Source of the DNA: Escherichia coli
GTDB lineage: Bacteria > Pseudomonadota > Gammaproteobacteria > Enterobacterales > Enterobacteriaceae
Assembly (NCBI RefSeq): GCF_003334785.1
Contig: NZ_QOWV01000049.1
Reading direction: 5' to 3' (one strand)
Length of the DNA stretch: 4,124 nucleotides
Numbering within the stretch: the stretch's first letter is position 1; every line of letters begins with the position of its first letter. Of the stretch, positions 1-475 are shown one piece after another. Both the position numbers and the translations under genes were made by a program. Below the pieces are notes generated by a model. The model searched no databases. It saw only the letters and a list, made by a program, of their open reading frames with translations, and was not told where the DNA came from.

Positions 1-88
1 AGAAAATATCCGGCGGGTTCCGGAGCGCCAGTCTGTAGGTTTATCCATCAATAGAACTCCGTCTAATTTAGAAGGAGCTCTAATTTAG

Positions 89-475
89 TCTGCAAGGAGC
101 AGGTGTTACAGACGGCATTGGCTTTACGCTTACAATGGCTTTAAAGAAACCTTCAAAGTTCGTCCGCAGGCAACCGCCGGTGTATCCTGGCACAATGACC
201 TGTTTACCACTGCTCTTGACATTGATCTGACTCCTGCCAGTGGCTTCACTTCTGACAGCAAACGTCAGTTTGCAAGTGTTGGTGCTGAATTTAACGCATG
301 GAAATGGGCGCAATTGCGTGCCGGTTATCGTCAGAACATGGCATCAAACTCCGGAAGCGCCTTCACCGCTGGCGTTGGTATCTCTCCATTTGACGTCGTA
401 CATATCGATGTTTCCGGCCTGGTAGGAACTGACCACGATTACGGTGCAATGGCACAACTTCAGTTCACTTTCTGA
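89..475 (+). pseudogene. 3' fragment (129 codons) of an outer-membrane beta-barrel-like protein gene; YfaZ-like is a guess from memory only
   Basis: Open frame (codon positions 89-475, stop TGA 473-475) translates to ...NGFKETFKVRPQATAGVSWHNDLFTTALDIDLTPASGF...GVGISPFDVVHIDVSGLVGTDHDYGAMAQLQFTF*, with alternating hydrophobic residues and a C-terminal aromatic Phe typical of OM beta-barrels. The frame is closed by TAG at 86-88 and the other two forward frames also have stops within 1-90. First ATG in frame is at 338 and no GTG occurs before it, so the N-terminus, signal peptide and start are missing from this copy. Codon usage is E. coli-like (~50% GC). Confidence 0.45.

Follow-up and report, generated by a model that had tools for sequence, protein, structure and literature searches.

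The window analysed here, a stretch of 4,124 nucleotides from Escherichia coli, starts within a mobile element that is joined to part of a conjugation gene, and its left boundary very probably goes back to the insertion of an IS66-family element of the ISEc47 type into traF of an IncI1 plasmid. The initial annotation had seen in this place a gene remnant truncated at its 5' end and a boundary of genome rearrangement. Both views are borne out: 113 of 400 codons of the gene are left, 100% identical to the intact gene, and the end of an insertion sequence (IS) meets traF here. The event is of an ordinary, already known kind, namely an IS insertion that makes a pseudogene. Beyond annotation, that is, the assignment of positions 1–133 to an IS66-family (ISEc47-like) end and of positions 134–475 to a traF pseudogene fragment, its importance is small. 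For specialists in mobile elements there are two by-products, a conserved hairpin in the leaders of enterobacterial IS66 elements that is predicted to occlude the ribosome-binding site of tnpA, and a possible composite ISCro1/ISEc47 insertion.

Three-frame forward translation agreed with the reading frame that had been reported, which is open from position 89 to the TGA at 473–475 in frame 2, the sole early stop in this frame being the TAG at 86–88. Past position 89, in-frame starts are TTG at 314 (codon 76), ATG at 338 (codon 84) and ATG at 449. The statement that no ATG or GTG precedes codon 84 is thus correct, TTG at 314 being the only candidate ahead of the ATG at 338. Stops are indeed present in all three forward frames within 1–90, six in total, at 52 and 64 in frame 1, at 86 in frame 2 and at 36, 69 and 81 in frame 3. 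The forward stops and the absent forward start are a consequence of reading positions 1–133 on the antisense strand of an IS. Within the open reading frame 89–475, gene sequence is confined to 134–475, and the 15 codons at 89–133 are IS sequence that is open by chance.

The identity of the first 133 positions as the left end of an IS66-family insertion sequence (1..133, minus strand) follows from their 100% identity to a multicopy element. When they were used as a query for complete E. coli genomes, they were found in 947 records at 1305 places and in 857 of the 5426 genomes, with up to 22 copies per genome; positions 1–140 yielded 948 records and 1306 places, on chromosomes as well as plasmids, with annotated transposase. 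Many of the copies of 1–133 are 100% identical and yet have quite different neighbours, and they are annotated as transposase or ISEc47. Seven aligned copies have ...GGCTTTACGCTTAC, ending in CGCTTAC, in common and all diverge at the next base, which sets the end of the element at window position 133. On the minus strand, 133..127 reads GTAAGCG, which is common to related copies that diverge just outside it. With this motif begins the terminal inverted repeat IRL (GTAAGCGTAAAGCCAATGCCGTCT on the minus strand, 110..133, extent approximate), followed on the same strand by an 85-nt leader and by tnpA, the first 16 codons of which occupy 1..48 (minus strand, ATG at 48..46, MDKPTDWRSGTRRIFS...).

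An intact copy of the element in strain 504237 (L001) is annotated as IS66-like, ISEc47 family, with the genes tnpA-tnpB-tnpC, and the start codon of its first gene (144 aa) is the equivalent of window position 48 on the minus strand. This three-gene order is present in copies identical over 1–133, while the window itself holds no more of it than the tnpA codons just mentioned. When compared with NCBIfam, the tnpA product matched IS66-like TnpA with an E value of 6e-19 and 68.7 bits, just short of the curated cutoff of 74. The opposite terminus of L001 likewise starts with GTAAGCG (GTAAGCGTCAACGGAGCACCGTAT), and the element is flanked by an 8-bp duplication, AATGCTTT. Other intact copies have 8-bp duplications as well, CCCGATGG and CATCCATG.

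Wholly within the IS leader lies the imperfect tandem block of two units (62..100) that the initial annotation had taken for the scar of a rearrangement. As a description of the sequence, the tandem duplication and its contribution of stop codons hold: TCTAATTTAG-AAGGAGC (62–78, 17 nt) is followed by TCTAATTTAG-TCTGC-AAGGAGC (79–100, 22 nt), the 10-mer TCTAATTTAG forms an exact direct repeat at a spacing of 17 nt, and the block holds four of the six forward stops found within 1–90. Taken alone, the repeat is statistically weak and is not strong evidence of anything. Tandem Repeats Finder, run at a score of 30, reported no array at this block, which is too short for the tool, and an exact 10-nt repeat at a spacing of 30 or less was present in 12% of Markov-simulated windows.

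It is this resemblance to an imperfect tandem duplication, together with the four stop codons, that speaks for a slippage or duplication scar at 62–100 and a breakpoint somewhere within 36–100, and we consider such an origin very improbable. A scar would be unique to the rearranged locus and would add length, and the block does neither. It is unchanged across hundreds of copies of one mobile element; over all of 1–133, and so over the block too, hundreds of IS copies inserted at unrelated sites are identical to the window. The repeat is therefore native IS66 leader sequence, identical in copies with unrelated flanks. The L001 copy contains the identical block, and L005 and L007 contain diverged versions of it. 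The ATG lies 85 nt from the terminal repeat in ISEc47 and ISKox1 as well as in the relatives L014, L017 and L018, and ISKox1 has a leader of this length in spite of lacking the second repeat unit. Leaders that have the repeat and leaders that lack it are thus equally long, and the block is not an added duplication that would lengthen them. Furthermore, homology to traF begins only at 133/134, and alignment to the intact homologue puts the breakpoint at 133|134, outside the interval initially suggested. When the window was tested for an island boundary of the att type, neither a tRNA or tmRNA gene nor an integrase nor an att-like site was present, and its flanks are ends of transposable elements instead.

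To the right of the junction, window base 134 is the first base of traF codon 288 when compared with the intact gene in L002 (1203 nt, 400 codons), and the remnant of IncI1 traF (134..475, plus strand) comprises codons 288–400 and the stop. All of its 113 residues are identical to residues 288–400 of intact TraF (WP_000976355.1), and from 133/134 onward the DNA matches traF at its 3' end with 99.7–100% identity in about 1600 records from E. coli, most of them IncI1-type plasmids. The label of an outer membrane protein was a reasonable one. Intact TraF contains a Pfam TraF_2 domain (PF13729, residues 50–318, E 1e-72) and a Sec-type signal peptide, has weak PorV/PorP-like similarity and ends in ...QFTF; no sequence relatives of the intact protein were found in the PDB. 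The remnant is left without codons 1–287, a usable start and the signal peptide, and keeps only the last fifth of the TraF_2 domain. With the start, the signal peptide and most of TraF_2 missing, it is, on sequence grounds, a dead pseudogene.

It could be imagined instead that the remnant encodes a small functional protein whose translation starts internally or at a non-canonical codon, given that the frame is open over 128 codons and that 113 traF codons have stayed free of mutations. Zero mutations also fit a recent event, however, and the overlapping contigs examined show zero mismatches to the window. No ATG or GTG occurs before codon 84, translation from the TTG at 314 would give 53 residues, and the product would be a beta-barrel protein deprived of its signal peptide and of residues 1–287. 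Nor is the intact homologue about equally short, a finding that would have been at odds with truncation: the gene has 400 codons in L002 and in pESBL. Together, these points make a functional small protein exceedingly improbable.

The first eight base pairs of the remnant, AATGGCTT (134..141), represent the right-hand copy of a target-site duplication, and intact traF reads ...GTCGTCAATGGCTTTAAAG in this place. The reciprocal junction, ...GTCGTCAATGGCTT|GTAAGCG, was found in Logan contig L024 (3077–3114) and in plasmid NZ_AP022179.1 (L026, 12053–12090). The left copy of AATGGCTT was seen in these two records only, where it lies beside an ISCro1-type end, so that the target duplication at the reciprocal junction is directly visible in records other than the window, which holds the right copy. 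The presence of the 8-bp AATGGCTT on both half-junctions indicates that the original event was a transposition into an intact traF. Out of the deletion, insertion or excision that had been considered initially, insertion is thus upheld, in the form of transposition with an 8-bp target duplication, and excision is not. In the sequence of events that we propose, an ISEc47-type IS66 element would have transposed into IncI1 traF and duplicated the 8-bp target. The window starts 133 nt inside the element, on its antisense strand, and traF resumes at codon 288 with the right copy of the duplication. In this genome, the element upstream of the window would presumably be complete, with the 5' part of traF on its far side.

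For the reciprocal side, the predicted product is TraF 1–289 plus Leu, with a stop provided by the terminal GTAA of the IS. The version starting at the second Met, TraF 2–289 plus Leu, is on record exactly, in the Logan contig with the reciprocal junction, and the version starting with MMKK is not on record in the exact-match protein index. The subterminal IS sequence CATTGGCTTTA (116–126) and the junction/target sequence CAATGGCTTTA (133–143) agree at 10 of 11 positions, which may reflect chance or a target preference; the target of the L001 copy, AATGCTTT, is similar as well.

Ten independently assembled contigs agree in the junction 133|134, namely the ENA metagenome contigs L009 and L010 and at least eight Logan contigs from at least five runs, among them L030–L034. 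Runs and samples with the junction include ERR4899511, ERR1948969, ERR3593475 and SAMEA608544x. Contigs L009, L010 and L030–L034, which stem from at least seven runs or assemblies and two pipelines, show zero mismatches to the window. Contigs carrying the junction begin 27–55 nt inside the IS end. One Logan contig, L032, covers the entire unit: it starts 29 nt within the IS66 end and stops 30 nt within the IS1203 end. The ENA and Logan contigs with the junction all stop inside the IS, as contigs do at collapsed repeats, and an assembly chimera at the repeat might be suspected on these grounds. Agreement without a single mismatch across so many runs or assemblies and two pipelines, as well as the exact geometry of an IS66 target duplication, leave next to no probability for such an artefact. 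The junction was absent from the 5426 complete E. coli genomes, PLSDB, the GTDB representative genomes and the JGI metagenome contigs.

A complication arises from the IS end at the reciprocal traF junction, which is the right end of ISCro1 (GTAAGCGACTCGTC...) and not that of ISEc47. The two elements share 63–74% nucleotide identity, and intact copies of both carry 8-bp duplications. The 90 nt around the reciprocal junction are present with 100% identity in one complete plasmid, pWP7-S17-ESBL-04_2 (NZ_AP022179.1), an ETEC-type plasmid with an IncFII replicon, eatA, fimbrial and T6SS genes and IncI1 remnants. The other end of its ISCro1 meets unrelated DNA without a target duplication, and window positions 134–4047 are entirely absent from the plasmid. 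From the one-sided ISCro1 and the absence of 134–4047 it follows that the two halves of traF are separated in pWP7.

By analogy with pWP7, the traF halves may have been separated in the genome of the window too, by IS–IS recombination or by an IS-mediated deletion or inversion, and the boundary would then be a rearrangement junction. In line with this, the 289-aa reciprocal product is not on record for samples that carry the junction of the window, although its absence from an exact-match protein index carries little weight, and this 3.9-kb remnant contains a further, internal deletion and is bordered by an IS on its other side as well. On the other hand, AATGGCTT has been kept on both half-junctions, as expected from an original transposition into intact traF. 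We therefore regard a separation of the halves in this genome as possible, albeit rather unlikely, and adhere to the insertion of an ISEc47-type element as the origin of the boundary.

How an ISCro1 end came to lie at one half-junction and an ISEc47 end at the other is a related matter. A clean ISCro1/ISEc47 recombinant IS was sought with a synthetic chimera query, joined at the longest word shared by both elements (30 nt), and none was found. The best match of this query was a nested arrangement on chromosome NZ_AP022177.1 (L029, 4525–9772), which belongs to the same strain as pWP7. Here, ISCro1 (duplication GGAGCAGG) is nested in tnpA of ISEc47 (duplication CATCCATG) in the same orientation, and the nested pair contains a 3.09-kb unit that has the right end of ISCro1 at one side and the left end of ISEc47 at the other. 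Because the outer ends of this unit are exactly the ends at the two traF half-junctions, it is a candidate source of a composite insertion, and the original insertion may have involved a composite made of two IS66 members. Two routes could have led there. Either the 3.09-kb ISCro1/ISEc47 unit would have been mobilized as one element and would have hit traF once, or the nested pair would have been inserted, and the right part of ISEc47 would then have been lost between two GTAAGCG termini. Mobilization of the 3.1-kb composite as a single element, with a transposase working on heterologous ends, is a tentative proposal to which we assign a lower than even chance; if true, it would mean that end usage across members creates new composite IS66 elements. 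Independent hits at an insertion hot spot would likewise account for two IS types in one target, an explanation that is neither supported nor excluded; the few target duplications (AATGCTTT, CCCGATGG, CATCCATG, GTACTTTT, CTTGAAAA, GGAGCAGG and AATGGCTT) show no consensus. The ISCro1-type end at the reciprocal junction is only partly explained.

Folding energy and conservation revealed a hairpin in the tnpA leader of the IS, UAGAGCUCC-u-UCUA-aau-UAGA-c-GGAGUUCUA (52..82, minus strand), one part of which is repeat unit 62–78. Read from 82 to 52, it has nine pairs and, beyond a one-base mismatch, another four, and its arms are formed by the repeat unit and the sequence just upstream of the tnpA ATG. 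The Shine-Dalgarno sequence GGAG (60..57) belongs to the 3' arm, and 8 nt separate its end from the ATG. For a 104-nt version of the leader, the folding energy is −31.3 kcal/mol (z = −5.2), and for a 66-nt version z is −4.65. Standard pairs account for 94.9% of the pair cells across six divergent leaders, as opposed to 24–46% when the partners are slid by 1–3 columns. Two pairs are compensatory in that both sides change, and five are wobble-only, the sample for covariation being small with six sequences and the observed values being reached in 15–17 of 500 shuffles. Hairpins that abut the start codon are present in seven of the eight divergent IS66 members examined, the TnpA proteins of which are 34–42% identical and the leader sequences of which are unrelated.

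Hairpins that contain the Shine-Dalgarno sequence or abut the start codon recur in enterobacterial IS66 leaders (L013, 1501–1530; L014, L017, L019 and L021). About 250 Klebsiella plasmids match just the 30-nt hairpin stretch (ISKox1). A variant left end of ISEc47 in CP025890.1 (L012, 301–423) has lost, in a 10-bp deletion, the spacer that separates the hairpin from the tnpA ATG (GACGG|ATGGAT) and is probably a defective copy.

We hypothesize that the hairpin occludes the ribosome-binding site of tnpA and would in this way limit translation of the IS genes, especially from outside transcripts that read into the element. Either a translational control element not yet described or an operator may be present here. 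A palindromic protein-binding site, in place of an RNA hairpin, is equally compatible with the DNA. The G-U pairs, which on the opposite strand would turn into A-C mismatches, speak for an RNA structure on the sense transcript. No Rfam family reached its gathering score, a strict sigma-70 consensus scan of positions 1–600 on either strand, leader included, gave no promoter, and a literature search on leader structure in ISEc47, IS679 and IS66 returned nothing relevant.

The traF remnant is the first gene of a longer IncI1 segment. It is followed by a terminator-like, GC-rich hairpin (487..510, plus strand), recognized by a consensus scan only, and by an intact traG in R64 nomenclature (535..1119, plus strand), which encodes a histidine phosphatase of the LPS core heptose(II)-phosphate phosphatase family (NCBIfam PRK15416, E 2e-88; also annotated in L002) and is the gene named TraG for this neighbourhood in PMC4288162 (Table 2). 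The traG-traH intergenic region (1120–1513, 394 nt) is conserved with IncI1 plasmids. Next comes a 5' fragment of traH of 39 codons (1514..1631, plus strand; annotated in L002), which ends at a deletion junction according to a three-way alignment with intact traH and traY. The deletion 1631|1632 joins traH codon 39/40 to codon 344 of traY, and the rest of the traH-traY block is gone; the 3' fragment of traY (1632..2771, plus strand, from codon 344 of 722, as aligned) is out of frame with traH. Around this junction (1624–1640), there is a short microhomology (TA/GGT-TA), and at about 1639 a G-to-T difference to the reference traY is seen. An intact excA for IncI1 surface exclusion (2847..3461, plus strand) and an hha-like gene (3559–3753) lie further downstream. 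In the latter, TAG is present at 3751–3753 where pACN001-F has TGG, five codons before the normal stop, and the product is shortened from 69 to 64 residues.

At its right side, the segment is bordered by the terminal 77 nt of IS1203/IS629 of the IS3 family (4048..4124, starting TGAACCGCCCC), 100% identical to IS1203 copies in pWP7-S17-ESBL-04_2, which cuts a 94-codon hypothetical gene (start at 3869) at 4047|4048. Contig L009 continues past the IS1203 end into IS3-family transposase genes. The IncI1 remnant 134–4047 is thus bracketed by two different IS elements, and the IS66|traF boundary is one of three breakpoints in it, the signature of ordinary IS-driven decay of a conjugative backbone.

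The functional consequences can be estimated from published work on related plasmids. The traH-traY block holds genes required for transfer in R64 and pESBL, and traE, traF and traG are dispensable in pESBL (PMC4288162). Table 2 of the same paper places traF (1203 nt) among the genes of pESBL that transfer does not require. Loss of traF alone would for this reason not abolish conjugation, whereas the deletion from traH to traY would. Judged by its gene content, the stretch 134–4047 is a decayed and putatively transfer-dead IncI1 remnant, one of the kind seen in ETEC-type virulence plasmids.

When set against known systems, the traF remnant and intact TraF of IncI1 plasmids (R64/pESBL) have the same residues 288–400 and the same traF-traG-traH neighbourhood, the difference being that 28% of the gene is left. 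The left end of ISEc47 does not differ from window 1–133 in the 133 nt that are visible. The IS66 relatives ISEc47, ISKox1, ISCro1 and IS679 have GTAAGCG termini, the gene order tnpA-tnpB-tnpC and 8-bp duplications in common and are multicopy elements in E. coli chromosomes and virulence plasmids. Leader hairpins that occlude the ribosome-binding site are reportedly covered for IS10 and IS50 in a review by Mahillon and Chandler from 1998. In those elements, just as in the leader studied here, the Shine-Dalgarno sequence ahead of the first IS gene is paired within a stem near the IS end; in contrast to IS10 and IS50, occlusion in the IS66 leader is a prediction from the fold and its conservation.
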